Position numbers and translations under genes: made by a program
Source: Flavobacteriales bacterium
Lineage (GTDB): Bacteria > Bacteroidota > Bacteroidia > Flavobacteriales_F > PHOS-HE28
Direction of reading: 5' to 3'
NCBI GenBank assembly: GCA_016710015.1
Contig: JADJLR010000002.1
Coordinates: 416,365-480,364, forward strand
DNA: 64,000 nucleotides
In this document: positions 9,686 to 49,343 of the stretch, piece by piece
Layout: every line of letters begins with the position of its first letter
Position numbering within the stretch: position 1 is the stretch's first letter
Notes under the pieces: generated by a model
Databases searched by the model: none
What the model was told of the DNA's origin: nothing
The model's input: only the letters and a program-made list of their open reading frames with translations

Positions 9686-9783
9686 ACCGGAAACGAAGAC
9701 ACGATCGATCTCGGATGCAATAGCGTCCAGATAATAGTCGTTCGGAATGCGTGGCACTACCTTGCCGCTTCATCTCCACCGTC

Positions 9784-15360: not shown

Positions 15361-15366
15361 TCGCCG

Positions 15367-25776: not shown

Positions 25777-25830
25777 GAGGCGCGAATATCTCGTACGGAA
25801 CCTTCAACCCCATGGCCCCGTTGAAAGGCC

Positions 25831-28350: not shown

Positions 28351-31300
28351 ATGATCCTCTGGATGCCCATTGCTCATAGGCGATCCCTGCTCCTAGTCAT
28401 ACTCCTGACCCATCTACTGCTAGCCGGTGCCGCTAGTGCCCAGTCCTATGTCTGGCAATGGGGACACTCGCTATCCAGCAGCGATAAGGAGGAGGTGACC
28501 GGGGTCGCGATGGACAATGCCTCAGGTGCGTCATACGCTTGTGGATATACAGAAGGAAATGGTCTTATCGGCGGATCAAGCGGGACCGTTGGAGGAAACG
28601 TGGATGCCTTCGTAATGAAGTACGACCAGAACGGCGTCCGTGAATGGGCGTTTACTCCAACAAGCCTGAATGATAGCAGAGCTACAGGTATTGCCTTGGA
28701 TGCCGCTGGGAATATCTATGTCTGTGGTTGGTTCAAAGGGGTTATTGACATTGCAGGTAACTCCGCGCTGGGAACAGGCTTATTGTCCAGTTCCGGCAAC
28801 ATAGACTGGTTCATCGCATCCTTTTCACCGAACGGAATACTGAGGTGGAAGGCCAAGCTCGGAGGATCCGGGGACGACCTTCCTGCCGGCATCGCCGTTT
28901 CAGGGGATCAGGTCTCCGTGTTCGGGACCGTCAAAGGGCGGATCACGACCTCGTTCGGATCCATTTCAAACAGTCTGCCCTCCGGCAAAGAGAACTTGGT
29001 GATCGTCAGTTATGGATTGAACGGGACCGGCCAGTGGCTGATCTCCGGAGGAAGTGGCGATGATGAGATCCCACGATCCATCGCTAAGGACGCGAGCCGT
29101 GTGTTCGTGGCATTCAGGGCGAAGAACAACCCCTTCAGATGGTACGATCCAGCAGGTGCGGTCCTATCAAGTCACTCCAATTCGACGGACAAGGAAGTGC
29201 GGATTTCCGCGTTCAGCATCAGCGCTGCACACTTATGGACCACTTCCCTTTTCGAAAATGACAACGTGGACATTAGTGGGGCGGGCATGGCGGCGGGCTG
29301 CGATGCGCTCTACTATTCCAGCATCAGTCATTCTCCCTGCACATTCCCGGGAGTTGGCGTGGTCAACACCGGTACGCATGATTTCTTCTACCTCGGTCGC
29401 ATCGACCCGAACACCGGTCTATTTCAATGGGTGACCACCGGCACTACGACCGGTTCCACCCATACCATAGGAGGAACAGGAATAGCGATCGGAAGAGCAG
29501 GAGCGGTGCATGTGGTCGGCAACTTCAAGGACGATGTTTCGATCGATGGAAATACGTTGTTGTCAAGTACAGGTAAGGTCCAACCGTTCGTTGCCACCTT
29601 CCGGTCCTCCGGCATCCTCGTCCGGAACGACAAACTGACCAGTTCCAAGGATGCTTGGGGGGCATGTATTGCTTCTGACGCACAAGGAAGGCTCGCCATA
29701 GGAGGGCGCTTCAACACGAATATCTCGAGCAGTACGATTCCATTGACGGGACCTTCCAATGACAACGGTTACCTTTTCAAGGGTTCCATTGCCAATTTAG
29801 GCGGTGCCGAACCCTCTGCTTGGACCCCGCCTGGGACCATGTGTTCGAATGCGGGTCCATTTTCGTTGAATTCCTTGCTCATAGCCTACGGGAGCGGACC
29901 AGCAGTATCTGTCGCTAATTCCAGCAATGTGGTCTCGCCAAATGGAGCGCTCGGTGCCGTACTTGGCAGCTACGCACAGTTCAACACCGCTGGTGGGCAT
30001 ATCACCGTAGACCTTGGGGTCACAGTACCCTCCGGAACGACGATCAGTGTACTCTGGCGCACATCAGGAGCATCAGCCTCTGCGAACATCCTTTCCGGAA
30101 CAACCACCAGCCCGACAGCTTCTGCAGGCACGATCAGCACGGCCTCCAATTCGGCGATCTATTCGGATATCACGCTGTCCGGTCCTGCGCGATACATCAG
30201 GCTCCAACGTCCAAGTTCGGGCAGCTCGAATTTCGAAGTGGACGGTATCTACTACAGTTTCGGCAATGACCTTAGCGGCACATGGTCCGGACCAGGCGTG
30301 TCCGGATCCACCTTCAACCCTGCGGGACTGTCCGGAGCCGTTGCGTTGACCTATACCGTCGGCAGCGGATCCTGTGCATCGTCCACGACCGATTCCATCC
30401 AAGTGACCGCAGCTCCGAACGCAGGTACGAACGGAACGCTGTCGACGTGCAGTGGTTCACCAGCAGCCAGCTTATTCGCACAATTGGGTGGTACTCCGCA
30501 GACCGGTGGCATCTGGTCGGGACCAAGCCCAGTAGTCGGTGGCATGTTCGATCCGAGCAACATGAGCCCCGGCAACTACATGTACACCGTTGCTCCGACA
30601 GGTATTTGTGCGGGTTCGGCCACAGCATCGGCCTCTGTGACGGTCGGTGCCACCCCGAGTGGTGGCACCTTCACTGGGAATGGGGTGGTTTGCCCTTCCC
30701 CAGCGACCGGTACGCTGACGATAACCGGATATAGCGGCACGATCGTTCGTTGGAGGGTATCAACGAACGGCGGCACGCTTTGGACCTCGATCGGCTCCAC
30801 AAATTCCAGCATCACGTGGAGCAACCTCACCGGTCCAACACAGTACATGGTGGAACTAAGCCAACCCGGTTGTGGAACTGGTTTCAGTCCGGTGGCCACA
30901 CTGACGCCGCAAGACATGATCGCACCATCGATCATTTGCCCGGCGGTCGCCCCGATCCAAACCGCTTACGCCACGCCCTCATGCTCCATGCAAGTTCCCG
31001 ACTTCAGGACCTTGTACACTGCATCGGACAATTGCACGGCCACACCGACCATCGTCCAGGATCCGGCGGCGAACACATTCGTACCATTCGCGGAATACTT
31101 GTTGGTCCAACTGAAAGCCGTGGACGCGGCCGGAAATGGTTCCGCATCGTGCATGGCTACCATCATCGGTGTGGATACACTTCCTCCGACCTATAGCTGT
31201 CCAGGGGATGTGAATATCAATACCGATCCAGGTGCCTGCGGTGCAAGTCGCACGTTCTCGCCTATCGGATATTCGGACAACTGTTACGGGAATGGTAATT

Positions 31301-34300
31301 CGGAAGCGCTCTACCTCGCTCCCGGGAACGTGAGCCAGACGCCACTCTCGATATTCGACCCGACGGATTGGGTAGATATCACCGCGACCCCAACTCAGAC
31401 CCTTTCATTGGGTGATCATACGGTAGCCTATGTGCACGAGAACGGCGTTGAGGACGTAGTGCTTTGTTCGCAGATCATTCGAGTGACAGATTCACAACCT
31501 CCACAGATCTCCTGTCCAGCGGGTGTTCTGGCAATCACCAACACCGGTTGTACCGCTACTGGTGTCGCCCTCGGTACGCCGGTGTCTAGTGACAACTGCG
31601 GTGTGGCTTCCGTAACGAACGATGCTCCGGCCGTCTTCCCGATCGGTGTGACCACCGTGACCTGGACCGTGACCGACAACGCTGGATCGACCGCTACCTG
31701 CACACAGACCGTCACCGTGAGCGACAACGTGCCACCTACGATCACCTGCCCGGCCGACGTTGCCGTGAACACCAACAGTGGTTGTACCGCTACTGGTGTC
31801 GCCCTCGGTACGCCGGTGTCTAGTGACAACTGCGGTGTGGCTTCCGTAACGAACGATGCTCCGGCCGTCTTCCCGATCGGTGTGACCACCGTGACCTGGA
31901 CCGTGACCGACAACGCTGGATCGACCGCTACCTGCACACAGACCGTCACCGTGAGCGACAACGTGCCACCTACGATCACCTGCCCGGCCGACGTTGCCGT
32001 CAACACCAACAGTGGTTGTACCGCTACTGGTGTCGCCCTCGGTACGCCGGTGTCTAGTGACAACTGCGGTGTGGCCACCGTGACGAACGATGCTCCGGCC
32101 GTCTTCCCGATCGGTGTGACCACCGTGATCTGGACCGTGACCGACAACGCTGGACTGACCGCTACTTGCACACAGACCGTCACCGTGAGCGACAACGTGC
32201 CACCTACGATCACCTGCCCGGCCGACGTTGCCGTCAACACCAACAGTGGTTGTACCGCTACTGGTGTCGTCCTCGGTACGCCGGTGTCTAGTGACAACTG
32301 CGGTGTGGCTTCCGTGACGAACGATGCTCCGGCCGTCTTCCCGATCGGTGTGACCACCGTGATCTGGACCGTGACCGACAACGCTGGACGGACCGCTACC
32401 TGCCACAGACCGTCACCGAGGACACGCCACCTCGCCGGCCGACGGCTGGAACACCAACAGTGTCCGTGTCCCGCGGGTAACACGGGCCCTCGCGCGCTCT
32501 GTGCGCCACCATGCCGGACCGACAACGCTGGACTGACCGCTACTTGCACACAGACCGTCACCGTGAGCGACAACGTGCCACCTACGATCACCTGCCCGGC
32601 CGACGTTGCCGTGAACACCAACAGTGGTTGTACCGCTACTGGTGTCGCCCTCGGTACGCCGGTGTCTAGTGACAACTGCGGTGTGGCTTCCGTACGAACA
32701 TGCTCCGGCTCTCGTCCGCCGGCAGTACTGGTGTGCCTCGGTACGCGGTGTCTAGTGACAACTGCGGTGTGGCTTCCGTGACGAACGATGCTCCGGCCGT
32801 CTTCCTGGTGTGACACCGGATCGGACCGTGACCGACAACGCTGGATCGCCGCTACCTGCCACAGACCGTCACCGTGAGCGACAACGTGCCACCTAGATCG
32901 CCTGCCCGGCCGACGTTGCCGTCAACACCAACAGTGGTTGTACCGCTACTGGTGTCGCCCTCGGTACGCCGGTGTCTAGTGACAACTGCGGTGTGGCTTC
33001 CGTGACGAACGATGCTCCGGCCGTCTTCCTGATCGGTGCGACCACCGTGACCTGGACCGTGACCGACAACGCTGGACTGACCGCTACTTGCACACAGACC
33101 GTCACCGTGAGCGACAACGTGCCACCTACGATCACCTGCCCGGCCGACGTTGCCGTCAACACCAACAGTGGTTGTACCGCTACTGGTGTCGCCCTCGGTA
33201 CGCCGGTGTCTAGTGACAACTGGGTGTGGCCTCTGCCGTCGTGGACCGAGTGACACTGCCACCACTCCCTGCCGTGCCCCAGGGTGTCCCTGGTGTCGTC
33301 CTCGGTACACCGGTGTCTAGTGACAACTGCGGTGTGGCTTCCGTGACGAACGATGCTCCGGCCGTCTTCCCGATCGGTGTGACCACCGTGACCTGGACCG
33401 TGACCGACAACGCTGGACTGACCGCTACTTGCACACAGACCGTCACCGTGAGCGACAACGTGCCACCTACGATCACCTGCCCGGTCGACGTTGCCGTCAA
33501 CACCAACAGTGGTTGTACCGCTACTGGTGTCGCCCTCGGTACGCCGGTGTCTAGTGACAACTGCGGTGTGGCCACCGTAACGAACGATGCTCCGGCCGTC
33601 TTCCCGATCGGTGTGACCACCGTGATCTGGACCGTGACCGACAACGCTGGACTGACCGCTACTTGCACACAGACCGTCACCGTTTCGGATGCGACGGCCC
33701 CTTCTGCTGACTGTCAGAATATTACCGTTCAACTTGATGCAAGCGGTAGCGCTACCATCACGCCTGCTTCCATTGATGGCGGCAGTAGCGATAACTGTAG
33801 TGGCTTTACTCTGAGCGCTTCTCAGACTGTCTTCAACTGTAGCCATATTGGAGTAAATACCGTGACACTCACCGTTACGGATGCTTCCGGCAACGTGGGT
33901 ACGTGCGATGCGATCGTAACCGTGGAGGACACCATCGATCCCACTATCACTTGCCCAGGAGATCAAACCGTACAACTGGCATTCGGTAGCACCGGCACTT
34001 GGTATGTACCTGTCATCAACGCGAATGACAATTGTGGAATTTCAGCGATCGCCCCAGCCGTTACGGACAGTTTGTGGCTCACTGCCGGAACGCATGCACT
34101 CGCCTATACAGCTTATGATGCAGCCGGGAATTCCTTTGAATGTGATTTTGAAGTGACAGTAGACATCTTAGATTGCTTTGGAACGCCAAATGGTACCGCA
34201 TTCCTTGACAACTGCGCAACATGCGTGGGTGGCAACACCGGTGAAGTAGCTTGCGTGCAAGACTGCAACGGTGACTTCGGCGGTACGGCATTCCTTGACA

Positions 34301-37300
34301 ACTGCGCAACTTGCGTGGGCGGCAACACCGGTGAAGTAGCTTGCGTGCAAGACTGCAACGGTGACTTCGGCGGTACGGCATTCCTTGACAACTGCGCAAC
34401 TTGCGTGGGTGGCAACACCGGTGAAGTGGCTTGTGTGGCTGACTGCAACGGTGACTTCGGTGGTACCGCATTCCTCGACAACTGCGCAACTTGCGTGGGT
34501 GGCAACACCGGTGAAGTGGCTTGTGTGGCTGACTGCAACGGTGACTTCGGCGGTACGGCATTCCTCGACAACTGCGCAACCTGCGTGGGTGGCAACACCG
34601 GTGAAGTAGCTTGTGTGGCTGACTGCAACGGTGACTTCGGCGGTACGGCATTCCTCGACAACTGCGCAACCTGCGTGGGTGGCAACACCGGTGAAGTAGC
34701 TTGTGTGGCTGACTGCAACGGTGACTTCGGCGGTACGGCATTCCTCGACAACTGCGCAACCTGCGTGGGCGGCAACACCGGTGAAGTAGCTTGTATCCAA
34801 GACTGCAACGGTGACTTCGGCGGTACGGCAGTCCTCGACAACTGCGCAACCTGCGTGGGCGGCAACACCGGTGAAGTAGCTTGTATCCAAGACTGCAACG
34901 GTGACTTTGGCGGAACGGCATTCCTCGACAATTGCGCAACCTGCGTGGGCGGAAACACCGGTGAAGTAGCTTGTATCCAAGACTGCAACGGTGACTTCGG
35001 CGGTACGGCATTCCTCGACAACTGCGCAACTTGCGTGGGTGGCAACACCGGTGAAGTAGCTTGTGTCCAAGACTGTAACGGTGACTTTGGCGGTACGGCA
35101 TTCATCGACAACTGCGCAACCTGCGTGGGTGGCAACACCGGTGAAGTAGCTTGTATCCAAGACTGCAACGGTGACTTCGGCGGTACGGCATTCATCGACA
35201 ATTGCGCAACCTGCGTCGGTGGCAACACCGGTGAAGTAGCTTGTGTGGCTGACTGCAACGGTGACTTCGGCGGAACAGCATTCCTCGACAACTGCGCAAC
35301 TTGCGTGGGTGGCAACACCGGTGAAGTAGCTTGTGTGGCTGACTGCAACGGTGACTTCGGCGGAACAGCATTCCTCGACAACTGCGCAACTTGCGTGGGT
35401 GGCAACACCGGTGAAGTAGCTTGTGTGGCTGACTGCAACGGTGACTTCGGCGGTACGGCATTCATCGACAATTGCGCAACCTGCGTCGGTGGCAACACCG
35501 GTGAAGTAGCTTGTGTGGCTGACTGCAACGGTGACTTCGGCGGAACAGCATTCCTCGACAACTGCGCAACTTGCGTGGGTGGCAACACCGGTGAAGTAGC
35601 TTGTGTGGCTGACTGCAACGGTGACTTCGGCGGAACAGCATTCCTCGACAACTGCGCAACCTGCGTCGGTGGCAACACCGGTGAAGTAGCTTGTGTGGCT
35701 GACTGCAACGGTGACTTTGGCGGAACAGCATTCATCGACAACTGCGCAACCTGCGTGGGTGGCAACACCGGTGAAGTAGCTTGTGTCCAAGACTGCAACG
35801 GCGACTTTGGCGGCACAGCATTCCTCGACAACTGCGCAACCTGCGTGGGCGGCAACACCGGTGAAGTGGCTTGTGTCCAAGACTGCAACGGCGACTTCGG
35901 TGGAACGGCATTCCTTGACAACTGCGCAACTTGCGTGGGCGGCAACACCGGTGAAGTAGCTTGTGTGGCTGACTGCAACGGTGACTTCGGCGGAACAGCA
36001 TTCATCGACAACTGCGCAACCTGCGTGGGTGGCAACACCGGTGAAGTAGCTTGTATCCAAGACTGCAACGGTGACTTCGGCGGTACGGCATTCCTCGACA
36101 ATTGCGCAACCTGCGTGGGTGGCAACACCGGTGAAGTAGCTTGTGTGGCTGACTGCAACGGTGACTTCGGCGGAACAGCATTCCTCGACAACTGCGCAAC
36201 CTGCGTGGGTGGCAACACCGGTGAAGTAGCTTGTATCCAAGACTGCAACGGTGACTTCGGCGGTACGGCATTCCTCGACAACTGCGCAACTTGCGTGGGT
36301 GGCAACACCGGTGAAGTAGCTTGTATCCAAGACTGCAACGGTGACTTCGGCGGAACAGCATTCATCGACAACTGCGCAACCTGCGTGGGTGGCAACACCG
36401 GTGAAGTGGCTTGTGTCCAAGACTGCAACGGCGACTTCGGTGGAACGGCATTCCTTGACAACTGCGCAACTTGCGTGGGCGGCAACACCGGTGAAGTAGC
36501 TTGTGTGGCTGACTGCAACGGTGACTTCGGCGGTACGGCATTCATCGACAATTGCGCAACCTGCGTGGGCGGCAACACCGGTGAAGTGGCTTGTGTCCAA
36601 GACTGCAACGGCGACTTCGGTGGAACAGCATTCATCGACAACTGCGCAACCTGCGTGGGAGGTAACACCGGTGAAGTAGCTTGTGTGGCTGACTGCAACG
36701 GTGACTTCGGCGGTACGGCATTCCTTGACAACTGCGCAACTTGCGTGGGTGGCAACACCGGTGAAGTAGCTTGTGTGGCTGACTGCAACGGTGACTTCGG
36801 CGGAACAGCATTCCTCGACAACTGCGCAACCTGCGTCGGTGGCAACACCGGTGAAGTAGCTTGTGTGGCTGACTGCAACGGTGACTTCGGCGGAACAGCA
36901 TTCATCGACAACTGCGCAACCTGCGTGGGTGGCAACACCGGTGAAGTAGCTTGTATCCAAGACTGCAACGGTGACTTCGGCGGAACAGCATTCATCGACA
37001 ACTGCGCAACCTGCGTGGGCGGCAACACCGGTGAAGTGGCTTGTGTCCAAGACTGCAACGGCGACTTCGGTGGAACGGCATTCCTTGACAACTGCGCAAC
37101 TTGCGTGGGTGGCAACACCGGTGAAGTAGCTTGTGTCCAAGACTGCAACGGTGACTTCGGCGGTACGGCATTCATCGACAATTGCGCAACCTGCGTGGGC
37201 GGAAACACCGGTGAAGTAGCTTGTGTGGCTGACTGCAACGGTGACTTCGGCGGTACAGCATTCATCGACAACTGCGCAACCTGCGTCGGTGGCAACACCG

Positions 37301-40016: not shown

Positions 40017-42206
40017 ATGCTTCGCAAGCTCTCCATAGCCTTCGTGTTGCTCGCCAATGTTGGTGTGGCTCAGGAGTCCCATGAGGTAATGCCCCTAGCA
40101 CTTGGCAACATGACGGAGGACTATGCGCCGGTCTTTCTGGATTCGGGTTTCGTTATGAGTTCCATCCGGGAGACCGAAGCCACCATCGCATTCAAGGACG
40201 CAGAAACCGGCCGACCGCTTGCCGACCTATACTGGGTCCCCCTGATGGACAATGTACCGGGCACTCCGGTCCTCTTCAGTGCGAACCTAACAACACCGGT
40301 GAACGAAGGTCCAGCTGCATTCACACACGGTGGTAAAACGATCTGCTACACCCGGAATGTGACACTTCCGAAGAAGTTATCCAACCTCCGCGCATCGAAT
40401 TCCCAACTCGGACTCTTCTTCTCCGATCTGGAGAACGGGACCTGGTCTTTGCCGATCCCTTTCATGCACAATAGCACCAAATACTCGGTGATGCACCCAG
40501 CGATCAGCATCGATGGCAACACCCTGATATTCGCCAGTGACATGCCAGAGGGCCTTGGTGGCATGGACCTCTACCGCAGTACTCGAACCGTCGAGGGCTG
40601 GTCCACGCCGGAGAATCTCGGTGCTGCGATCAATGGCCCGAACAACGATGTATTTCCCTCCTTCGGTCCGAACGGTGCCTTGTACTACTCCAGCGACCGG
40701 ATCGGCGGAATGGGCAAACTGGACCTCTACATGGCTCCGCGCAACGGTCCTACTTGGAGTGATCCGACCGCCCTGCCAGCCCCGATCAACTCTCCGGGGA
40801 ACGACATGGGGATCACCTTCCGCGCCGATGGACGCAATGGTTACTTCAGTTCGAACCGAAGTGGGACGGATCGGATCATGTCCATGAAGTGGACCGTTCC
40901 GAAATTCCGGGACTGTGCACCTCAAGAGCGAAACAATTACTGTTACGCCTTCCGAGCCAAGAAGCATGCCGCCACAAGTTCACTCCCGCTTGACCACGTT
41001 TGGGAACTTGGTGACGGTACCCGCACCACCGGTTTGGTCGCCGAACACTGCTACGACCAGCCAGGCACCTACGTCGTACGCTCCTTGCTCGTGGATCGCA
41101 AGACCGGGGATGTCTTCCATCAACTCAAGGAGCACGAGTTGGTGATCGATGATGCCCAGCAAGCTTGGATCTCATCACCGGATACGGTGCGCACTGGACG
41201 TGCGATGGCCTTGGATGCATTCAATAGCCACCTGACCGAATGGGAACCCTCGGAATACCATTGGGATATGGGAAATGGCTCAGTCCTTCAAGGCGAGAAG
41301 ATCCAGCATACGTTCCGGATACCTGGAGTGTATGAAGTCAAATTGGATATTCTTTCCCAACCGGATGCCAACGGTGCGATCGCCAACCAGTGCAACACCC
41401 GAACCGTGGTGGTCTTGGATCGCTTCCACGATCAGGAGGACCTGACCGTGGTGGCCACCTACCAAGATGTCATGGGGGCCACACACACGTTCGAGTACCA
41501 AGAATTGCCCTTTGATCAATTGGGTATGGCCATGGATGAGATGGCGGATGCTACCTTCTCCGTGGAACTCTTTGCATCGAAGGATCGGATCAGCTTGGAC
41601 GATCCGAAATTCATGGAAGTCCGCAAACTGTATAGGGTGGTGGAACGTTTCGATCCGGAACGCGGCGTGTACACCTATTCAGTAGGTGAGACCAGTGATC
41701 TGGAAGAGCTTTACAAAGTGTTCAAGAAGGTGAAGGAGTTGCAATTCCTGGATGCCGAAGTATTCCAACTGCAACCCGAGAAGTTGATGGACCTGAGCAA
41801 ACTCGATCTTGCCTCGATCGAAGAGTTGAATCATTCGAAACTGCGGACCAATGCGATCCACTTCGCGTACAAAAGCGCGGATATCGGATCGGGGTCCGAG
41901 GAGACCTTGGACCAGATCATCGGATTGCTCCGTCAACACCCGGAATTGAAGTTGGTGATCGAGGCGCACACGGACGACATTGGAAACAACGCATACAACA
42001 TCGACCTTTCCCAACAGCGTGCGCAGTCCGTACTCAGTTATCTGGAGGAACACGATGTTTCTCCGGACCGGTTGATCCCCGTGGGCCATGGAGAGAACCA
42101 GCCCATGGCGAGCAACAAGACCGAAGATGGGCGCAGTCAGAACCGTCGTGTGGAATTCCGCATGACCGTTAAGGGCGAGGATCAGGCGTTCCAGAAGACC
42201 CGCTGA
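40017..42206 (+). CDS. OmpA family protein with PD40 (TolB-like WD40) repeats and PKD domains
   Basis: Signal peptide MLRKLSIAFVLLANVGVAQE. PD40-like repeats (GGMDLYRS, GKLDLYMA, NGYFSSNRSG). PKD-like blocks (WELGDGTRTTG...GTYVVRS; WDMGNGSV...GVYEVKL). C-terminal OmpA domain reads IHFAYKSADIGSGSEETLDQIIGLLRQHPELKLVIEAHTDDIGNNAYNIDLSQQRAQSV...NRRVEF. Confidence 0.8.
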   Translation: MLRKLSIAFVLLANVGVAQESHEVMPLALGNMTEDYAPVFLDSGFVMSSIRETEATIAFKDAETGRPLADLYWVPLMDNVPGTPVLFSANLTTPVNEGPAAFTHGGKTICYTRNVTLPKKLSNLRASNSQLGLFFSDLENGTWSLPIPFMHNSTKYSVMHPAISIDGNTLIFASDMPEGLGGMDLYRSTRTVEGWSTPENLGAAINGPNNDVFPSFGPNGALYYSSDRIGGMGKLDLYMAPRNGPTWSDPTALPAPINSPGNDMGITFRADGRNGYFSSNRSGTDRIMSMKWTVPKFRDCAPQERNNYCYAFRAKKHAATSSLPLDHVWELGDGTRTTGLVAEHCYDQPGTYVVRSLLVDRKTGDVFHQLKEHELVIDDAQQAWISSPDTVRTGRAMALDAFNSHLTEWEPSEYHWDMGNGSVLQGEKIQHTFRIPGVYEVKLDILSQPDANGAIANQCNTRTVVVLDRFHDQEDLTVVATYQDVMGATHTFEYQELPFDQLGMAMDEMADATFSVELFASKDRISLDDPKFMEVRKLYRVVERFDPERGVYTYSVGETSDLEELYKVFKKVKELQFLDAEVFQLQPEKLMDLSKLDLASIEELNHSKLRTNAIHFAYKSADIGSGSEETLDQIIGLLRQHPELKLVIEAHTDDIGNNAYNIDLSQQRAQSVLSYLEEHDVSPDRLIPVGHGENQPMASNKTEDGRSQNRRVEFRMTVKGEDQAFQKTR

Positions 42207-42327
42207 TCACGCCTCGCGTACAACACGGTTCGACGACGACCGGAGTTCCTGAAGCTTTCGGTCATTGTTCCACGAATGGTCCGCAGATCGTTCCGCTCAA
42301 CCCCATCGTGGTGGATACCTTAGCTGC

Positions 42328-45300
42328 GTGTCACCTTCGAACCGCATCTTGGCCCACCTGATCTTCTTGTGTGCTTCGGTCCAAGCGACCGTGGCCCAGA
42401 CGGGTCTTCAATTCATCCAGAATCGTGGGCAATGGCCGGATGCAGTGACCTATCGTGCGGACGCACCCTCGGCCACGGTCTGGGTCGAACGCAGTAGCTT
42501 GTTGATCGATCGGTACGATGCCACCGCCATGGAGCACTTGGCCCATGCGCATACGCACGGTGGTGAAGTCCCGCGAACCGTTGCTCATCATGCACTCCGG
42601 TTGGGCTTTGCAGGCGCGAACCCAGACCCGATCATCGAACCGTTGGGTATTCGACCGGGGGCGTACAACTACATCCTCGGTAATGATGCCTCCCGTTGGG
42701 TGGGCAAGGCACATGCATTCGGTGCCTTGGTGCAAAAGGACATCTACCCTGGGGTGGACCTGCGCATTCGGGCAAAACACACCGCGTTGAAATACGACCT
42801 ACTCCTTGCAGCCGAAGCGGAGGTGGGAAAGATCCTTCTTCACTATGAAGGAGCCGAACGCATCGAGCTGACCCCGGACCGGCTGATCATCCACACCGCA
42901 CTGGGCGCTCTTACCGAAAGTATTCCACTGGCTTACCAAGAGATCGCTGGGGAACGCCGACACGTCGAATGCACCTATCGCAGGGTTGGTGATCTCATCG
43001 GTTTCGAACTTGGTGTACACGACCCTACTGCACCCGTGGTGATCGACCCGACCCTTGTCTTCAGTACGTATTCCGGTTCGTTCGCCAACAATTTCGGTTA
43101 CACCGCTACTTTCGATCGCAATGGATTTCTGTACAGCGGCAGCACGGCGTTCGGTCAAGGCTATCCGACCACCACGGGAGCCTATCAAGTTTCGCATGCC
43201 GGTGGTGATGGCTTGTTCGACGGGACCGATATCGCCCTTACGAAGTACGACACCACGGGCACCTTCCTCATCTGGAGCACGTACCTGGGCGGAAGCAGCG
43301 ACGAACTACCCCACAGTTTGATCGTGAACGGGAACGACGAGGTCTTCGTGTACGGCACCACCAGTTCGCCTAATTTTCCCACTACTGCCGGGGCGTTCGA
43401 TGGCACCTTCCATGGTGGCCCGCCCGTGGACCTCACCAACGGACTGGGTGCCGATATGCCGAACGGTGCGGACATGATCGTGGCACGCTTGAGCGCAGAT
43501 GGTTCGCAATTGCTGGCGAGCACCTACCTCGGTGGTTCTGGTACCGATGGATTGAATACAGCGGCAGGGCTGAAGTTCAACTATGCGGATGAAGTACGCG
43601 GAGAGGTGTTGCTGGATGCCAACGACAATGTGTACATCGCGAGTTGCACGGCATCGCCCGACATGCCAGTGACCATCGGCAGCATCCAACCCGTGTATGG
43701 TGGCGGTGCGCAGGATGGCGTGGTGGTGAAGATGGACGCTTCACTCACTTCGGTGATCTGGGGCAGCTACTTCGGCGGAACTGCTGCCGATGCCATCTAC
43801 AACATCGAATTGAACAGTGCAGGAGCATTGTACGTGACAGGTGGAACGCGTAGCACGGACCTGCCCGTCACCTCTGGAGCGTATCAAAGCACCTTCCAAG
43901 GCGGCACTGCGGACGGATTCGTTGCGTTGATCGGTGGCAATGGAGCCACCTTGCTCGCTAGTAGCTATTTCGGCACCAGCGGATATGACCAATGCTACTT
44001 CGCCGAGCTGGATCAGGAAGGCCAAGTGTACCTCTTCGGTCAAACCACTGCGGTCGGAAATGTCCTGATCGTGAACGCGCCGTACAACGTTCCGAACGCA
44101 GGTCAATTCATTTCGAAAATGGATCCTGGCCTCACAGCGATCCAGATCAGCACCCGATTCGGTCAAGGCGATGGCATTCCGGACATCTCCCCGACCGCAT
44201 TCTTGGTGGACTATTGCGACAAGATCTACGTGAGTGGTTGGGGTAGCGCGATCCAAGGTGGACAGTTGAGCACGGCCGGGTTACCGGTAACTCCCGATGG
44301 CTTTCAACAAACGACCGATGGCAACGACTTCTACCTCGCGGTCTTTGACATCGATCTCTCGGACCTGTTCTACGCCACCTACTTCGGCGGCGGCACCAGT
44401 GCCGAGCATGTGGATGGAGGCACCAGCCGATTCGACCGACGTGGTCGAGTTTACCAAAGTGTTTGCGCCGGATGTGGCGGAAATTCCGACTTCCCGATCC
44501 AACCGAACCCCGGTGCGTGGAGCCCCACGAACAATAGCGGTTTCTGCAACAACGGCGTTTTCAAGTTCGATTTCGACCTACCGATCGTTGTGGCGGACTT
44601 CGGATCGAGCACCAACTGCCTGCCTACGCCGATCACCTTCAACAACCAGAGCTACGGTGCCACGGACCATGCTTGGCAATTCGGTGATGGCACGAGCAGC
44701 ACGCTTCCCTCGCCGAGTCACCTTTATGCCGCTCCGGGTGTGTACACCGTGACCTTGATCGCGAGCAATGCATCAACGTGCAACCTGAGTGATACAACGA
44801 CCCAGCAGATCGTGATCCTGGGCGACGGCAACCTTGAACTTCCGGACACGACCATTTGTTCGGGCGGATCCGTTCAGATCGGCATCCTGCCCATCGCCGA
44901 TCCGAGCGTGACCTATCAATGGTCCCCATCGCAAGGGTTGTCCAACGCAACAGCTTCGAATCCCTTCGCTTCGCCCATACAGACCAATACGTATGCCTTG
45001 ACGATCAGCAACGGAACGTGCAGCACCACCGCGCGACAAACCGTGATCGTGAGCACGGGTGCGATCGATGCCGGCGCGGAACAACTCCTTTGCGGACCCG
45101 ACCCGGTCACGACCCTTGTGGCGAACGGTTTCGGAAGTATCCATGCGTTCCAATGGTCCAGTACCGCCACATTCTCCGATACACTGAACGCACCCATCGC
45201 AGATAGTACAGCGCTCGTGATGCCGCTTCGTGATACGTGGTACTTCGCACGCGCATTGGATCAGGCATGTAGCGCCGTGGATAGTGTACTCCTCCGCGTT

Positions 45301-46071
45301 TCGCTTGCAGTCCCTCTCCTTTTCGGTGACAGCACGATCTGCACATCGGATATCGCGACGTTGGAGTTGTCCGGTATCGATCCGGGTTCCACGATCACTT
45401 GGGAACCGACCGATGGGATCATTTCCGGACAAGGGACCACCAGTGTACAGGTCGCACCGGAGGAGACCATGGGCTTTGGTGTTACCGTATTATCCCCGCT
45501 CGGATGCATCTGGAATGCAACCACTATCGTCGTGGTTTCGCCACTGGATGGCACCTCGGTGATCGCTACGGCCACGCCCTCGCTCGTACTTCCCGGCGAA
45601 AGCGTTCAACTTCAAGCTTTCCCAACCGATGCGGCGAGTTATTCCTGGTCACCGACCGCACCACTCAACACGCCGAACATCGCCACTCCCATAGCAACGG
45701 TCACAGCAAGCACGCTGTTCACGGTGACCGTTTCCGATGGCATTTGCACCAAGGATGCCTTCGTTCGGGTAGAGGTCCACGACCTCCGTTGCGCCGACCC
45801 GGATATTTTCGTTCCGAACACTTTCACCCCGAATGGCGATGGGAACAATGATGTCCTTTACGTGCGTGGTCGAGCGGTGGAACGCCTGAATTTCGAACTG
45901 TTCGATCGATGGGGTGAGTTGATCTTCCAGACCACCGATCTCACGCGCGGATGGGACGGTACGTACAAAGGGAAACCCGTCGACCCTGCGGTCTTCGTGT
46001 ATCACCTGACCGCATATTGCATCGATGGGCAGCGCTACTTCACAAAAGGAAACGTGACCGTTCTGCGATGA
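42328..46071 (+). CDS. T9SS type B C-terminal domain protein with SBBP beta-propeller repeats and PKD domain
   Basis: In-frame GTG at 42328 gives a signal-like N-terminus (VSPSNRILAHLIFLCASVQATVAQ); the ORF opens at 42265. SBBP-type repeats (YLGGSSDELPHSLIVNGNDEVFVYGTTSSPNFPTTAGAF and others). PKD region (GDGTSSTLPSPSHLYAAPGVYTVTLIASN). C-terminus reads DIFVPNTFTPNGDGNNDVLYVRGRAVERLNFELFDRWGELIF...FVYHL. Confidence 0.8.
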   Translation: MSPSNRILAHLIFLCASVQATVAQTGLQFIQNRGQWPDAVTYRADAPSATVWVERSSLLIDRYDATAMEHLAHAHTHGGEVPRTVAHHALRLGFAGANPDPIIEPLGIRPGAYNYILGNDASRWVGKAHAFGALVQKDIYPGVDLRIRAKHTALKYDLLLAAEAEVGKILLHYEGAERIELTPDRLIIHTALGALTESIPLAYQEIAGERRHVECTYRRVGDLIGFELGVHDPTAPVVIDPTLVFSTYSGSFANNFGYTATFDRNGFLYSGSTAFGQGYPTTTGAYQVSHAGGDGLFDGTDIALTKYDTTGTFLIWSTYLGGSSDELPHSLIVNGNDEVFVYGTTSSPNFPTTAGAFDGTFHGGPPVDLTNGLGADMPNGADMIVARLSADGSQLLASTYLGGSGTDGLNTAAGLKFNYADEVRGEVLLDANDNVYIASCTASPDMPVTIGSIQPVYGGGAQDGVVVKMDASLTSVIWGSYFGGTAADAIYNIELNSAGALYVTGGTRSTDLPVTSGAYQSTFQGGTADGFVALIGGNGATLLASSYFGTSGYDQCYFAELDQEGQVYLFGQTTAVGNVLIVNAPYNVPNAGQFISKMDPGLTAIQISTRFGQGDGIPDISPTAFLVDYCDKIYVSGWGSAIQGGQLSTAGLPVTPDGFQQTTDGNDFYLAVFDIDLSDLFYATYFGGGTSAEHVDGGTSRFDRRGRVYQSVCAGCGGNSDFPIQPNPGAWSPTNNSGFCNNGVFKFDFDLPIVVADFGSSTNCLPTPITFNNQSYGATDHAWQFGDGTSSTLPSPSHLYAAPGVYTVTLIASNASTCNLSDTTTQQIVILGDGNLELPDTTICSGGSVQIGILPIADPSVTYQWSPSQGLSNATASNPFASPIQTNTYALTISNGTCSTTARQTVIVSTGAIDAGAEQLLCGPDPVTTLVANGFGSIHAFQWSSTATFSDTLNAPIADSTALVMPLRDTWYFARALDQACSAVDSVLLRVSLAVPLLFGDSTICTSDIATLELSGIDPGSTITWEPTDGIISGQGTTSVQVAPEETMGFGVTVLSPLGCIWNATTIVVVSPLDGTSVIATATPSLVLPGESVQLQAFPTDAASYSWSPTAPLNTPNIATPIATVTASTLFTVTVSDGICTKDAFVRVEVHDLRCADPDIFVPNTFTPNGDGNNDVLYVRGRAVERLNFELFDRWGELIFQTTDLTRGWDGTYKGKPVDPAVFVYHLTAYCIDGQRYFTKGNVTVLR

Positions 46072-47105
46072 GTAAGTGCAGGTGGCATCCAACAATCGGT
46101 GCGGGTATTTTCGTCGCTTCACTCGCTATGGGCACAGCATGTCGAGTCCACGCGCAAGACATCCATTTCTCGCAATTCTTCAATTCCCCATTGGCATCGG
46201 GCCCTGGTGCGATCGGTACGTTCGAAGGGCAGTATCGTTTCAACGGGATCTTTCGGCAACAGTGGCGTTCGGTGACCATTCCTTATCGCACATTCGCTTT
46301 CGGTGCGGATGCGGCTGACGTGGGCGGCATCGGCGGCCTAGGTGTAGGCGCGTGGATCTACAATGACCGCGCTGGGGATAGCCAACTGGACCAATTCCAC
46401 TTCAGCATGGGTGCAAGTTGGACCGAACACTTCGGTGCCGATCGCGATCACGCTCTGACCGGCGGTGTGCAATTCGGAATCACCAACCTTTCACTCGATC
46501 CTTCCAGTCTCACCTTCGACAGCCAGTACAATGGGTACTATTTCGACCCCAACTCCGCCACCAATGAGCGGATCATTCGCGATGCAAAAACGCATTCCGA
46601 TCTCCACGCAGGACTTGTCTACCGCTTCAACATGGATCATCGCAAAGGTGTGCAGGTAGGGTTCAATGCATTCAACCTCACCACGCCGAACATCGACTTT
46701 CTCGGCGGTCCCTACACCGCGTTGGATGTGCGCACCAGTAGTCACTTGATGCTCTGGTTCCCTATAGCGAAGAAGCTGGACCTACGACCGATGTTGCAGT
46801 ACATGGCACAAGGGGAATTCCAGGAATTCGATATCGGATCGAATGTGCGCTACATCCTTCTGGATCGATTTGGCCTGTTACGTGCACTTTCCGTCGGACT
46901 GCATTACCGCGCCGCCGATGCCGGATACGTGTACGCCGGGTTGGAATACGACGATTGGACCTTTGGGATGAGCTACGACATCAACACGAGTTCGCTCGTG
47001 CCAGCCAGCCGGAACCGTGGTGCCATCGAACTCACGGCGATACGGATCCTGCGTAAAAGGCCGGTCGTTCCAGTACGCTTCAAAGCTTGTCCCACTCAGC
47101 TCTGA
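46068..47105 (+). CDS. PorP/SprF family type IX secretion system membrane protein
   Basis: ATGA overlap with the upstream stop. Reads MSKCRWHPTIGAGIFVASLAMGTACRVHAQDIHFSQFFNSPLASGPGAIGTFEGQYRFNGIFRQQW, the PorP/SprF N-terminal signature. Confidence 0.8.
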   Translation: MSKCRWHPTIGAGIFVASLAMGTACRVHAQDIHFSQFFNSPLASGPGAIGTFEGQYRFNGIFRQQWRSVTIPYRTFAFGADAADVGGIGGLGVGAWIYNDRAGDSQLDQFHFSMGASWTEHFGADRDHALTGGVQFGITNLSLDPSSLTFDSQYNGYYFDPNSATNERIIRDAKTHSDLHAGLVYRFNMDHRKGVQVGFNAFNLTTPNIDFLGGPYTALDVRTSSHLMLWFPIAKKLDLRPMLQYMAQGEFQEFDIGSNVRYILLDRFGLLRALSVGLHYRAADAGYVYAGLEYDDWTFGMSYDINTSSLVPASRNRGAIELTAIRILRKRPVVPVRFKACPTQL

Positions 47106-47108
47106 AAA

Positions 47109-49343
47109 ATGCGCTCGTTCGCTCGTATCACCACGCTCCTCCTTTTCGCTTGCACGAATGCTTGGGTGAGCGGGCAATCGGTGCAGCAATGGATCCTGTG
47201 GGGCGATGCGTCCATGGCTCGTTCTGAATTCTATGGTGCCTCACGATTCTATGCCGATGCCTTGGAGTTGGAACCCGGACGCATGAGCTTGCAATGGAAA
47301 CAAGCCGAAGCATGCAGACTGAGCAACCAGTACGACAAGGCCGCTGATCTGTACGAAGTGGTGTACCGAAAAGACGCCGGGCGGACCTACCCCGAGGCCT
47401 TGCGTTGGCTCGGTGAAATGCAGCTCTGCGATGCACGCTACGACGATGCGGAACGAACGTGGAACAAGGTGTTGCAGAAGGAGAAGGACAAATCATCGAC
47501 CATGGCCCTTCGTGCGAATGAAGCGATCAAGGGTTGCACATTAGCGAAGCAAGAGGGAGACCAGAACATTTTACTGGAACACCTTCCCGAACCACTCAAC
47601 TCGTTCTCCAGTGAATTCGCCCCACGCATCGGACCGGACTCGGTGCTCTACTTCTCCAGCCTGCGCGGCGACCTGAAGAGCGACGGGGAAGTGAAGGATA
47701 GCACCACCTATTTCACACATCTCTTTCCTGCAAAGGAATCGAACGGAACTTGGACCATCGGCGATCCGCTTCTCGATGAACGGCAACCGTGGAACAGCGC
47801 GAATGCGACATGGACAAGGAACGGGAAGTCGATCTTGTACACACAATGTGATAGCGCGAACAATTGTGTGATCCATTATGCGCCATTCACCAAGACCGGC
47901 CTATTGGGCACACCGCAGATGGGCTTGGATGGCGGAAGCAGTACGCAGCCGATGGTGGTCGCTGAAAATGATACGGAATGGCTGTACTTCGTAAGTGACC
48001 GGCCAGGCGGTGAAGGAGGAATGGACATTTGGCGTGCCCGGATCCTAAATGGCACAGCTGTTGATCCACGACCACTCGGACCACCGGTCAATTCGCCAGG
48101 AAATGAGTCGAGCCCGTGGTACGATGCCAGCAACGGCCAATTGTGGTTCGCCTCGGATTTTCACGCTGGCCTAGGTGGTTTCGACATCTTCCACAGTACT
48201 TGGAACGATACGTTCGATGCGCCTGTGAACGCCGGAATGCCGATCAACTCACCGGCCAATGATCTGTATCCGGTATACAACAGCACCACCGGTGAAGGTT
48301 GGTTGACCAGCAACCGCAAAGGCTCCTTCGCGGCGAAGGGCGAAACATGCTGCAACGACCTGTATCGTTTCGCGAAGCGTGTGTTACCAACGGGGCCGTT
48401 CGTTACCGTTACGACATTGGATACTTCCGTGATCGCATCGCTCCCTACGTACGATCCACAAACCGTCGTAGAACGTCTCCGCAGTGCGCAGCCGCTGGTC
48501 CTCTATTTCCACAACGACGAACCTGAACCGCGCTCACGTGCAACGCGCACCAAGCAGACATACGGAGCCACATTCGAAGCGTACGAAGCGTTGTTCCCAA
48601 CGTACATGAAGGAAAACGAAGCTCCTGATGCGATCGTCGACTTCTTTGCCCAGCTGGTTCGAGCAGGTCGCTCCCGGTTGGATACCCTGATCGTGGATCT
48701 GGCCCTTGCTTTGGAAGATGGCCACAACGTGACCTTGGATGTTCGCGGACATGCTAGTCCGTTGGCTCAGAACGACTACAACGTCGATCTGTCCCGTCGT
48801 CGCATAGAGAGCCTACGGATGCACTTATCGAACGCCAACGATCGTGCTTTGCAGGCCTACTTGGATAGCACCGCAGCGAACGGGGTGATCCTTCGCCTTC
48901 GTCCACTTCCCTTCGGTGAAGACCGATCGGCCCCGGGGGTTAGTGATGCACTTTCCGATGTGAAGCGGTCGGTATACAGTGTGGAAGCGGCGCAGGAACG
49001 CCGGATCGAAATAGCGCAGATCACGGTCGAACCCGTTAAGGAACACGAATTCATTCAGCGCTTTTCCATCGGGACGGTGACACGCGGAAGGCCAGAACCG
49101 TTCGACGTACCCGTGAAGAATGAAAGTGGGCAAACATTGACCTTGATCAGCGGGAATGCCGGTTGTGAGTGTATTTTAGTGGACCGACTACCACCTCCGA
49201 TCGAACCCGGTGGAACAGGCATTCTTCGCATCAGCTATTCAGGCAGATCGCTTGTCGGTCCCCTTGACCGAACGATCACGTTCCAAACGAATGACTTACC
49301 ATCGCGATTCGAGATCATCATCACAGGACTTGTCCAACCATAG
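47109..49343 (+). CDS. OmpA family protein with N-terminal TPR-like region, PD40 repeats and C-terminal DUF1573 domain
   Basis: Signal peptide MRSFARITTLLLFACTNAWVSGQ. TolB-like repeats (GGMDIWRAR, GGFDIFHS). OmpA-like segment NVTLDVRGHASPLAQNDYNVDLSRRRIESL. The C-terminus (GNAGCECILVDRLPPPIEPGGTGILRISYSG) resembles DUF1573. Confidence 0.75.
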   Translation: MRSFARITTLLLFACTNAWVSGQSVQQWILWGDASMARSEFYGASRFYADALELEPGRMSLQWKQAEACRLSNQYDKAADLYEVVYRKDAGRTYPEALRWLGEMQLCDARYDDAERTWNKVLQKEKDKSSTMALRANEAIKGCTLAKQEGDQNILLEHLPEPLNSFSSEFAPRIGPDSVLYFSSLRGDLKSDGEVKDSTTYFTHLFPAKESNGTWTIGDPLLDERQPWNSANATWTRNGKSILYTQCDSANNCVIHYAPFTKTGLLGTPQMGLDGGSSTQPMVVAENDTEWLYFVSDRPGGEGGMDIWRARILNGTAVDPRPLGPPVNSPGNESSPWYDASNGQLWFASDFHAGLGGFDIFHSTWNDTFDAPVNAGMPINSPANDLYPVYNSTTGEGWLTSNRKGSFAAKGETCCNDLYRFAKRVLPTGPFVTVTTLDTSVIASLPTYDPQTVVERLRSAQPLVLYFHNDEPEPRSRATRTKQTYGATFEAYEALFPTYMKENEAPDAIVDFFAQLVRAGRSRLDTLIVDLALALEDGHNVTLDVRGHASPLAQNDYNVDLSRRRIESLRMHLSNANDRALQAYLDSTAANGVILRLRPLPFGEDRSAPGVSDALSDVKRSVYSVEAAQERRIEIAQITVEPVKEHEFIQRFSIGTVTRGRPEPFDVPVKNESGQTLTLISGNAGCECILVDRLPPPIEPGGTGILRISYSGRSLVGPLDRTITFQTNDLPSRFEIIITGLVQP

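Follow-up and report, generated by a model that had tools for sequence, protein, structure and literature searches.

Two tandem type B cargo–PorP/SprF–PorE-like modules in a Flavobacteriales bacterium genome

Described systems and the two triads

P. gingivalis has a single PorP, a single PorE and a single type B protein, which assemble into one complex, and gingipain secretion requires PorP and PorE (PMC12773672, PMC9143113); the PorE–PorP–PG1035 complex was demonstrated by pull-down and BN-PAGE (PMC9143113). The WD40 domain of PorE contributes to PorP binding, D576 and N584 are essential, and the Asp equivalent to D576 is reported to be completely conserved in PorE homologues (PMC12773672). 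F. johnsoniae carries five or six cargo/porP-like/porE-like operons, of which Fjoh_3952–3951–3950 gives rise to static foci; PorE-linked cargos have been proposed to be static and were observed to be so for Fjoh_3952 (PMC12618676). Earlier publications describe both the cargo–PorP–PorE-like operon and a model of static cell-wall anchoring (Kulkarni 2019, Gorasia 2022, Lauber 2025).

We analysed a stretch of 64,000 nucleotides (the window) that contains two tandem triads, each composed of a type B T9SS cargo, a PorP/SprF barrel, and a PD40-propeller protein (Table 1). Both are very probably operons of the known kind, encoding a type B cargo, its cognate PorP/SprF-like shuttle/anchor, and a PorE-like tether. 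The triads are an ordinary further example of a described arrangement: the third component, which an earlier note on this DNA took to be new, is PorE-like (NF052230/NF053607) and known from the F. johnsoniae operons and the P. gingivalis complex. Novelty is only modest and lies in a Ser-variant, DUF1573-bearing PorE-like family.

Table 1. Coordinates of the two modules and their main features, numbered from the first nucleotide of the window.
Feature	Position	Strand	Evidence or remark
Cargo 1, giant T9SS type B substrate	28351..39096	+	HYR, CHU_C, TIGR04131 matches; interrupted in window
Frame-scrambled stretch in cargo 1 HYR tandem array	32404..33290	+	frame hops 1->0->2->1, in-frame stops
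90-bp tandem repeat in cargo 1	34192..37445	+	36.1 copies, 92% matches, without indels
Type B C-terminal sorting domain (CTD) of cargo 1, CTD class 1	38794..39093	+	
PorP/SprF-like outer-membrane barrel 1 (PorP1)	39093..40016	+	PF11751 5.6e-73 (246 bits)
PorE-like protein 1	40017..42206	+	OmpA PF00691 1.5e-22, PD40 1.8e-17, PKD_4 2e-21
Cargo 2, T9SS type B substrate	42328..46071	+	DUF7948 1e-57, CHU_C 1.9e-14, TIGR04131
PorP/SprF-like barrel 2 (PorP2)	46068..47105	+	PF11751 2.4e-32 (113 bits); TIGR03519 134.4 bits
PorE-like protein 2 (variant)	47109..49343	+	TPR/PD40/DUF1573 matches
Divergent OmpA-like fold domain of PorE-like 2	48450..49043	+	motif RGHASPLAxNDYNxNLSxRRIESL
C-terminal DUF1573 / HYDIN-VesB-like Ig domain of PorE-like 2	49050..49337	+	

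The domain content, gene coupling, conservation and fold of the modules come directly from the present analysis. The gene order cargo–PorP/SprF–PD40 protein, twice over, had been proposed earlier and is borne out by family matches and coordinates: both cargos pass the curated TIGR04131 cutoff of 35 (57.4 bits for cargo 1, 52.2 bits for cargo 2), both PorP-like proteins pass the TIGR03519 cutoff of 90.55 (251.3 bits for barrel 1), and in NCBIfam both third genes match PorE (NF052230) and CHU_0125_OmpA best. The tight spacing also stands as first read. ATGA overlaps at 39093-39096 (module 1) and 46068-46071 (module 2; this 4-nt overlap is also kept in L006-L010) indicate that cargo and barrel are made by translational coupling, and the third gene follows PorP after 0 nt (40016/40017) in module 1 and 3 nt (47105/47109) in module 2. 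The two barrels share only ~25% identity, and across loci the CTD class, of the two seen, varies together with the PorP type, which we read as a sign of cognate pairs.

The F. johnsoniae operon Fjoh_3952–Fjoh_3951–Fjoh_3950, compared by gene order and domains, shares with the window both the gene order (type B CTD cargo, PorP/SprF-like shuttle, PorE-like gene) and the cognate pairing of CTD and shuttle. The window differs in having two modules in tandem, in its cargo domains (HYR giant; DUF7948/PKD), in a first PorE-like protein with two PKD domains in place of the CRD and without TPR, and in a second with a Ser-variant OmpA-like domain and DUF1573. In P. gingivalis, as in the model proposed for the window, the PorP barrel holds the type B CTD protein on the surface while PorE bridges PorP to peptidoglycan via its propeller and OmpA_C; the PorE crystal structure 6TOP is matched at sequence level by the OmpA_C of PorE-like 1 (PorE C-terminus, 7.9e-11) and at fold level by PorE-like 2. 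The P. gingivalis PG1035, PorP and PorE genes do not, however, form one operon, whereas the PorP- and PorE-like proteins of the window are encoded with their cargo. Furthermore, P. gingivalis PorE is a lipoprotein, whereas neither PorE-like protein of the window is one and both fall under the PorE model cutoff, and we count the requirement of P. gingivalis PorP and PorE for general secretion as another difference. TolB–Pal provides an analogy only, in that a PD40 beta-propeller and an OmpA-like peptidoglycan-binding domain cooperate at the outer membrane; the fold matches included structures of TolB and Pal, but the Tol system has the two parts as separate proteins, while in the window both are fused in one periplasmic partner of a T9SS barrel.

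Module 1 and its interrupted cargo gene

Module 1 (HYR giant, PorP1, PD40-PKD-OmpA) has all elements of the cargo–PorP–PorE-like anchoring model. Cargo 1 comprises a Sec signal peptide, an SBBP-like N-terminus, HYR repeats (149.7 and 93.1 bits), a Cys-rich repeat, and the type B CTD, with a CHU_C match of 81.1 bits; the Cys-rich part is the 90-bp tandem repeat, which encodes 36 copies of the 30-aa unit GTAFLDNCATCVGGNTGEVACVxDCNGDFG. This gene had been described as one ORF, but the window sequence splits it into two in the same frame (28351..32781, 1476 aa; 33226..39096, 1956 aa, carrying the CTD) around the scrambled stretch. There, ~900 bp of an array of 234-bp HYR units, whose copies are 97% identical, is disrupted, and the garbled patches (32404-32520, 32694-32900, and 33223-33290) are most likely an artefact of long-read consensus or collapse. 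Frame hops and in-frame stops are also what a true pseudogene in this strain would display, with PorP1 and PorE-like 1 left orphaned. We consider this very unlikely, given that the damage is limited to near-identical repeats, after which the original frame is regained, and that the gene is broken at differing positions in 8 other same-species assemblies (6 of the 8 show just 5-19 mismatches to the window per 10.9 kb downstream) and intact in one, L164 (open over 3333+ codons, annotated 4018 aa). Because the break points vary and L164 is intact, the interruptions are almost certainly assembly errors, not real lesions; the gene is also intact in L007 (4226 aa).

The label "SprB-like", previously given to this giant, finds no support, as the domain search of cargo 1 returned HYR and CHU_C and no SprB repeats, and it is misleading, the mobile adhesin SprB being the one without a porE-like gene next to it. 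SprB–SprF of F. johnsoniae and module 1 do have in common a giant repetitive type B CTD cargo and a co-transcribed, overlapping PorP/SprF-family gene, a likeness on the strength of which cargo 1 could be a mobile gliding adhesin of the SprB type, with PorP1 as its SprF. That reading is highly improbable: the repeats are HYR and the 30-aa Cys-rich unit, and the operon includes a PorE-like gene, in F. johnsoniae a mark of static cargos.

PorE-like 1 had been called a PD40/PKD/OmpA protein, correctly so. Besides a signal peptide of the signal peptidase I type, it has a PD40 beta-propeller at ~32-289 and a pair of PKD domains. Its OmpA_C (616-710) is canonical and carries the D-N-R triad for peptidoglycan binding; neither TPR nor lipobox was found in the protein. 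Its scores of 226.5 bits (NF052230 PorE) and 229.3 bits (NF053607) are both under the model cutoffs.

Module 2 and its Ser-variant PorE-like protein

Module 2 (DUF7948 cargo, PorP2, TPR-propeller-OmpA-like-DUF1573) is built along the same lines. Cargo 2 begins at a GTG start and contains a signal peptide, DUF7948, PKD, Ig-like domains, and a type B CTD of class 2. PorE-like 2 is made up of TPR (25-146), a beta-propeller (154-423), a disordered linker (426-447), the OmpA-like domain (448-645), and DUF1573 (648-743), an Ig-like domain with a CxC motif. Its N-terminal half (TPR and propeller) aligns to PorE positions 5-406, yet it reaches only 162 bits against the NF052230 cutoff of 600 (PorE-like 1: 226); both third genes being far under this cutoff, they are paralogues and not PorE itself.

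The earlier TPR/PD40/OmpA/DUF1573 annotation holds for all parts save OmpA, which is detectable at fold level only. Similarly, OmpA_C had been expected by HMM in both third genes and was found in the first (PF00691), while the second gave no HMM match. The OmpA-like domain of PorE-like 2 had no Pfam match even at E<=10, and PDB sequence and profile searches yielded marginal matches only. The peptidoglycan-binding Asp is replaced by Ser in 42/42 family members examined (triad S550-N558-R565), and N558, R565 and the neighbouring motif are invariant across these sequences, which share ~50% overall identity.

With the Asp-to-Ser change and the missing HMM match, peptidoglycan tethering by module 2 is not a given, and the invariant Ser and added Ig-like domain suggest that its periplasmic attachment may differ from that of module 1. 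PorE-like 2 might, in a possible though somewhat doubtful reading, not bind peptidoglycan at all but serve as a degenerate OmpA-like scaffold joining PorP2 to a different partner or ligand in the periplasm; the altered pocket and/or the DUF1573 domain would make that contact. The lack of an OmpA signal at HMM level, a Ser at the equivalent of the essential PorE D576, retention of D-N-R in 16/16 other cargo-linked PorE-like proteins sampled, and the extra conserved DUF1573 domain with its invariant CxC motif are consistent with such a role; the fold is nevertheless plainly OmpA-like, the invariance of N558/R565 and the motif argues for a maintained ligand pocket, and Ser can still serve as a hydrogen-bond partner. 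The window also encodes a stand-alone DUF1573 protein with an N-terminal membrane anchor (20010..20540), as noted earlier.

Proposed anchoring and conservation of the modules

Under the favoured tether model, Sec would export all three products of each operon, and the cargo would cross the T9SS translocon by means of its type B CTD, to be received by its own PorP-like outer-membrane barrel and to remain on the cell surface, bound to it non-covalently. In the periplasm, the PorE-like protein would contact the barrel via its PD40 beta-propeller and its OmpA-like domain would fix the complex to peptidoglycan, giving a static envelope-spanning adhesin anchor and not a mobile SprB-type adhesin. Contacts between the proteins, binding to peptidoglycan, and lack of movement are inferred here from experiments in P. 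gingivalis and F. johnsoniae. The earlier note's idea of a dedicated PorP and PD40-OmpA tether for each cargo is supported at its core by domains, fold, conservation, and survey, and agrees with the published model; the part that does not hold is a canonical OmpA in module 2.

In related MAG loci, counted at species level, the PorE2-like gene is immediately preceded by a PorP2-like gene in 59/59 and the DUF7948 cargo occurs in 47/47, and module 1 sits just upstream of module 2 in 33 of 41; L008 has module 2 alone in a different neighbourhood. Occurrence of module 2 once per related genome with enough sequence, in this invariant order and usually beside housekeeping genes, could mean that one or both PorE-like proteins, above all the module 2 set, belong to a general T9SS PorP/PorE core of the lineage, needed for secretion at large, and are not cargo-dedicated tethers. 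The alignment of PorE-like 2 to PorE would fit such a core, as would the single P. gingivalis complex on which gingipain secretion depends. We judge this improbable for the PorE-like proteins, including that of module 2, which scores well under the PorE cutoff, is no lipoprotein, and lacks the essential Asp; moreover, the window has two tandem paralogous sets, each with its own cargo and co-varying CTD/PorP class, and the several such operons of F. johnsoniae are treated as cargo-specific.

The co-occurrence survey suggested earlier was carried out on 80 diverse, independent metagenomic type B loci, ranked by their resemblance to a PorE-linked CTD, so that the following counts may over-represent PorE-linked modules: a PorP-like gene came next to the cargo in 42 of the 69 loci with enough sequence, a propeller+OmpA gene followed 15 of 30 cargo–PorP pairs, and all PorE-like ORFs (17/17) sat within cargo–PorP–PorE-like modules. 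Together with the invariance of module 2, the last of these results makes the triad association more than chance. PorP–OmpA and PorP–SPOR fusion proteins were also found among the surveyed loci.

Organization of the tandem modules and relation to published systems

The ORF map and junction sequences bear out the gene order that the earlier note had read on the + strand, in which two type B cargo genes are each followed by a PorP/SprF gene and by a gene encoding a PD40/OmpA protein, here termed PorE-like. Coordinates are summarized in the following table. Both PorP genes lie directly downstream of their type B cargo, each joined to it by an ATGA overlap, and this arrangement is kept in relatives. 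PorE-like 1 and cargo 2 are separated by a spacer of 121 nt. Because scans for sigma-70 promoters and terminators returned fewer sites than in shuffled controls, the transcription units are inferred from overlaps and spacing only; the Bacteroidetes -7 motif likewise gave fewer matches than shuffles, with none near either module. A gene encoding an ECF-type sigma factor (27667..28203, - strand) is positioned divergently, 147 nt upstream of cargo 1.

Features of the two cargo–PorP–PorE-like modules
Feature	Coordinates	Strand	Basis or remark
Cargo 1 region, giant	28351-39096	+	ORF map
90-bp tandem repeat, 36 copies, 92% identity, no indels	34192..37445	+	Inside cargo 1
PorP/SprF 1	39093..40016	+	ATG shares ATGA with cargo 1 TGA
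PorE-like 1	40017..42206	+	Start directly after PorP1 TAA
Cargo 2	42328..46071	+	GTG start, good signal peptide
PorP/SprF 2	46068..47105	+	ATGA overlap with cargo 2
PorE-like 2	47109..49343	+	3-nt gap after PorP2

These triads are a correct and well-observed instance of an already published T9SS module. In Porphyromonas gingivalis, PorE, PorP and PG1035 form a complex in which PorP holds the type B protein on the cell surface, and six porP-like genes of F. johnsoniae adjoin porE-like genes while sprB/sprF does not; it was proposed that PorP–PorE-like complexes anchor non-mobile type B proteins to the wall (Gorasia et al. 2022, PMC9143113). The genomic observation of porP-like/porE-like adjacency is itself credited to Kulkarni et al. 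2019. Five F. johnsoniae operons encode a PorE homologue, a type B substrate and its cognate shuttle, and Fjoh_3952, from an operon with the PorE-like Fjoh_3950 as its last gene, forms static foci only (Lauber et al. 2025, PMC12618676). The WD40 propeller of PorE has been implicated in PorP binding, and residues of the OmpA_C pocket are essential (Tominaga et al. 2025, PMC12773672). The suggestion that each cargo comes with a dedicated PorP anchor and an OmpA tether thus agrees with what is known, but its novelty does not hold, since the arrangement had already been published for model organisms.

Cargo proteins, PorP barrels and the interruption of cargo 1

Both cargos carry a type B C-terminal sorting domain (CTD), with TIGR04131 scores of 57.4 bits for cargo 1 and 52.2 bits for cargo 2 (cutoff 35) and PF13585 (CHU_C) scores of 81.1 and 54, respectively (cutoff 27). 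Cargo 2 is one uninterrupted ORF from its Sec signal peptide through the CTD, and the N-termini of the two cargos share only a weak SBBP-like repeat match. The PorP barrels were identified as such by TIGR03519 (251.3 bits for PorP1 and 134.4 bits for PorP2 vs a cutoff of 90.55) and by PF11751 (246.3 and 113 vs 22.3), and are only about 25% identical to each other. Two CTD classes co-vary with PorP type across related loci, as cognate cargo–shuttle pairs would predict. The need for a PorP-family protein in secretion or surface retention of its cognate cargo is documented only for SprF, Fjoh_3951 and PorP (PMC12618676, PMC9143113).

Cargo 1 has two kinds of repeats, namely HYR domains and a Cys-rich unit of 30 aa, GTAFLDNCATCVGGNTGEVACVxDCNGDFG. 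The latter is present in 36 copies, is encoded by the 90-bp tandem repeat and matched no Pfam family. Pfam assigned only HYR and CHU_C to this protein. The label "SprB-like" that had been attached to it is unjustified, given that SprB repeats are absent and that the gene next to PorP is porE-like; a mobile gliding adhesin of the SprB type would be expected to show SprB repeats and an sprF gene free of a porE-like neighbour, and the cargo 1 operon has neither.

In the window, cargo 1 is open over 28351..32781, meets a stop, and is reopened in the original frame at 33226. With one HYR unit as tblastn query, the coding frame between 32410 and 33292 hops from 1 to 0, then to 2, and returns to 1, and alignment to an intact 234-bp unit reveals three compressed, indel-dense patches (32404-32520, 32694-32900 and 33223-33290) around which the repeat sequence is otherwise 97% identical. 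Comparison with same-species assemblies, many of which encode an identical PorP1 protein, bears on the cause. In eight of these (L163-L170), none identical to the window although six have only 5-19 mismatches to it in the downstream 10.9 kb, the frame leading to the cargo stop is open from a different position in each of the eight; the gene is broken, at differing places, in seven, and in the eighth (L164) the full 10 kb is open and the annotated product is an HYR + CHU_C protein of 4018 aa. First cargos are also intact in more distant relatives, at 4226, 3184 and 676 aa. The differing break points and the intact L164 copy make a pseudogene very unlikely; the interruptions are almost certainly errors of consensus or collapse within the repeats, and the gene is probably intact in the cell. 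This locus is an example of the mis-calling of long, repeat-rich adhesin genes in MAGs.

PorE-like proteins and the altered OmpA-like domain of module 2

The best NCBIfam matches of both PorE-like proteins are PorE (NF052230, P. gingivalis PG1058) and a CHU_0125 OmpA-like model. Scores with NF052230, 226.5 bits for PorE-like 1 and 162.1 bits for PorE-like 2, lie far below the 600-bit cutoff, and the two are therefore considered PorE-like paralogues rather than PorE itself. While P. gingivalis PorE is an outer-membrane-associated lipoprotein with a lipobox Cys, neither paralogue is: the signal peptide of PorE-like 1 contains no Cys, and the candidate lipobox of PorE-like 2 (LLFAC, Cys at position 15) was rejected on account of a Cys that is unconserved in the family and A|QS sites of signal peptidase I type.

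PorE-like 1 comprises a PD40 propeller, two PKD domains and a canonical OmpA_C. The PKD domains take the place of the carboxypeptidase-regulatory-like domain (CRD) of PorE, which is dispensable in P. gingivalis (PMC12773672), and a TPR domain was not found, such that the protein departs from the four-domain PorE layout (TPR, beta-propeller, CRD, OmpA_C). Its OmpA domain, predicted in the earlier note, was confirmed by Pfam (80.2 bits vs a gathering score of 27.2); numerous OmpA-like domains of solved structure match it, among them that of the PorE C-terminus (6TOP, 7.9e-11), and it retains the peptidoglycan-binding triad corresponding to D576-N584-R591 of P. gingivalis PorE (D-N-R).

PorE-like 2 has TPR, PD40 and DUF1573 matches. 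Relative to PorE it keeps the propeller, has a disordered linker and a divergent OmpA-like domain where PorE has a CRD followed by OmpA_C, and gains the DUF1573. An OmpA_C domain had been assigned to this protein as well, an assignment that fails at the level of HMMs, the test that the note itself had named as refuting it, and stands by fold. Pfam gave no OmpA match even at E<=10, and NCBIfam returned nothing usable for OmpA, the only trace being a 13.9-bit TraB match. BLASTP against PorE-like 1 gave E = 0.001, and PDB searches were marginal (weak with phmmer; E = 0.011-0.5 with a family profile). The full-length AlphaFold model (pLDDT 86.8) consists of five parts, namely eight TPR helices, the propeller, a disordered linker, an alpha/beta domain at residues 450-642 and an Ig-like sandwich. 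Foldseek searches with the full-length model were swamped by beta-propeller matches and were uninformative on the C-terminal half, and it was the model of the isolated domain (residues 448-645; pLDDT 90.2) that decided the matter: its best 50 Foldseek matches are all OmpA-like, and it displays the beta-alpha-beta-alpha-beta-beta fold of OmpA-like domains. As modelled, the domain is OmpA-like in fold with an altered pocket. Ser550 occupies the position of PorE D576, and N558 and R565 are retained. Across the PorE-like 2 family none of these three residues varies (42/42 members); they lie within the motif RGHASPLAxNDYNxNLSxRRIESL. PorE D576 is essential and the triad has been reported as completely conserved among PorE homologues (Tominaga et al. 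2025, PMC12773672), in contrast to the PorE-like 2 family, in which Asp is invariantly Ser. D-N-R is kept in all 16 other cargo-linked PorE-like proteins sampled.

DUF1573 (PF07610) spans residues 651-742 of PorE-like 2 (36.8 bits vs a gathering score of 26.1), and a stand-alone, membrane-anchored DUF1573 protein is encoded at 20010..20540 (115.5 bits). A CxC motif occurs in both copies, as SCGCT in the stand-alone protein and as GCEC in PorE-like 2 (domain at 49050..49337), and in the PorE-like 2 family its two Cys are invariant in all 42 members. A further pair of cysteines occurs in an invariant TCCxD.Y motif at the propeller end (residues 413-419; window 48345..48365), where canonical PorE-like proteins have G.DDIY. 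Literature searches on DUF1573 together with T9SS returned nothing relevant among the papers covered.

The family is large, with >120 clusters at 47-61% identity, all of which have TPR, PD40 and DUF1573 and lack Pfam OmpA. Among species-representative genomes its 72 loci all came from MAGs of uncultured "Flavobacteriales bacterium". Immediately upstream there is a PorP2-like gene in all 59 loci with room for it, a DUF7948 cargo is present in 47/47, and module 1 (PorP1 and PorE-like 1) is located just upstream of module 2 in 33 of 41. In gene-level views, both modules stood in tandem in four loci, and in a fifth module 2 stood alone in a different neighbourhood. Owing to the Asp-to-Ser change, peptidoglycan attachment of module 2 is uncertain. 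Based on the invariant Ser, the appended DUF1573 with its CxC motif and the fixed DUF7948 cargo–PorP context, PorE-like 2 might represent a distinct PorE-like family whose complex either has an attachment point different from the canonical stem-peptide site of peptidoglycan or replaces the core PorE/PorP/PG1035 complex of this lineage, though we consider this reading unlikely. The Ser-variant family offers a natural test of the need for the OmpA_C Asp in PorE paralogues dedicated to a cargo.

Distribution of the module, proposed role and neighbouring genes

Metagenome contigs were scanned with a type B CTD alignment, yielding 80 diverse loci at 33-50% identity. A PorP-like gene comes next in 42 of the 69 loci whose downstream sequence extends for 1.1 kb or more, and a propeller + OmpA gene directly follows 15 of the 30 cargo–PorP pairs for which 3.2 kb or more of downstream sequence is available, a proportion of 50% that may be inflated given that the loci are those most similar to a PorE-linked CTD. 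Conversely, the 80 loci contain 263 ORFs of 250 aa or more, 17 of them PorE-like, and all 17 sit in cargo–PorP modules. Pfam analysis of 18 partner proteins identified OmpA in 17 (the exception being PorE-like 2), PD40 in 16, CarboxypepD_reg in 8 and TPR in about 8. The survey carries what was seen in F. johnsoniae over to a diverse set of environmental Bacteroidota, with about half of the cargo–PorP pairs accompanied by a PorE-like gene.

A PorP–OmpA fusion is present in one of the pairs and a PorP–SPOR fusion in two. PorP/SprF barrels (PF11751) with a C-terminal OmpA domain (PF00691) directly follow type B cargos at L161:6322-7905 and L160:6347-7576, as do barrels with a C-terminal SPOR domain at L108:6309-8156 and L109:410-2248. 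SPOR is a different peptidoglycan-binding module from OmpA. Judging from domain composition, a PorP–OmpA fusion would by itself couple PorP to peptidoglycan binding, with no PorE-like protein involved, and the two kinds of fusion independently point to frequent ties between PorP-like barrels and peptidoglycan. Literature searches for PorP with a SPOR domain found nothing relevant among the papers covered. Together, these fusions and the Ser-variant, DUF1573-bearing PorE-like family are the only elements that we regard as new, and modestly so. Two other variants were encountered: at L095:6380-10488 a type B cargo is followed by two consecutive PorP-like genes and then a PorE-like gene (8530..10488), a duplicated-barrel arrangement, and at L150:2578-3918 the gene that follows the cargo–PorP pair encodes a protein of 446 aa with PD40 alone, OmpA being absent.

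Domain content, coupling, conservation and folds were observed in both modules. By analogy with the two model organisms, each cargo would be exported by Sec and then pass through the T9SS, to be captured by its own PorP-like barrel, translational coupling keeping production of the two in step. The PorE-like propeller would bind the barrel from the periplasm and fix the complex to peptidoglycan, the outcome being a static adhesin; these contacts, the peptidoglycan binding and the static behaviour are carried over from the model organisms. Two large adhesins are probably held at the cell wall by the PorE-like tethers and their PorP partners. For annotation purposes, proteins named "PD40/OmpA" or "DUF1573 domain-containing" in these MAGs may be read as PorE-like tethers.

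Just upstream of the modules (23317..27408) lie genes for two beta-propeller (DUF5122) proteins, the second of which bears a type A T9SS sorting tail (Por_Secre_tail), so type A and type B substrates are mixed in this region. Further upstream (9751..17685), a bacterial alpha-2-macroglobulin (1869 aa) is followed immediately by a PBP1C-type transglycosylase/transpeptidase (772 aa), a known gene pairing.
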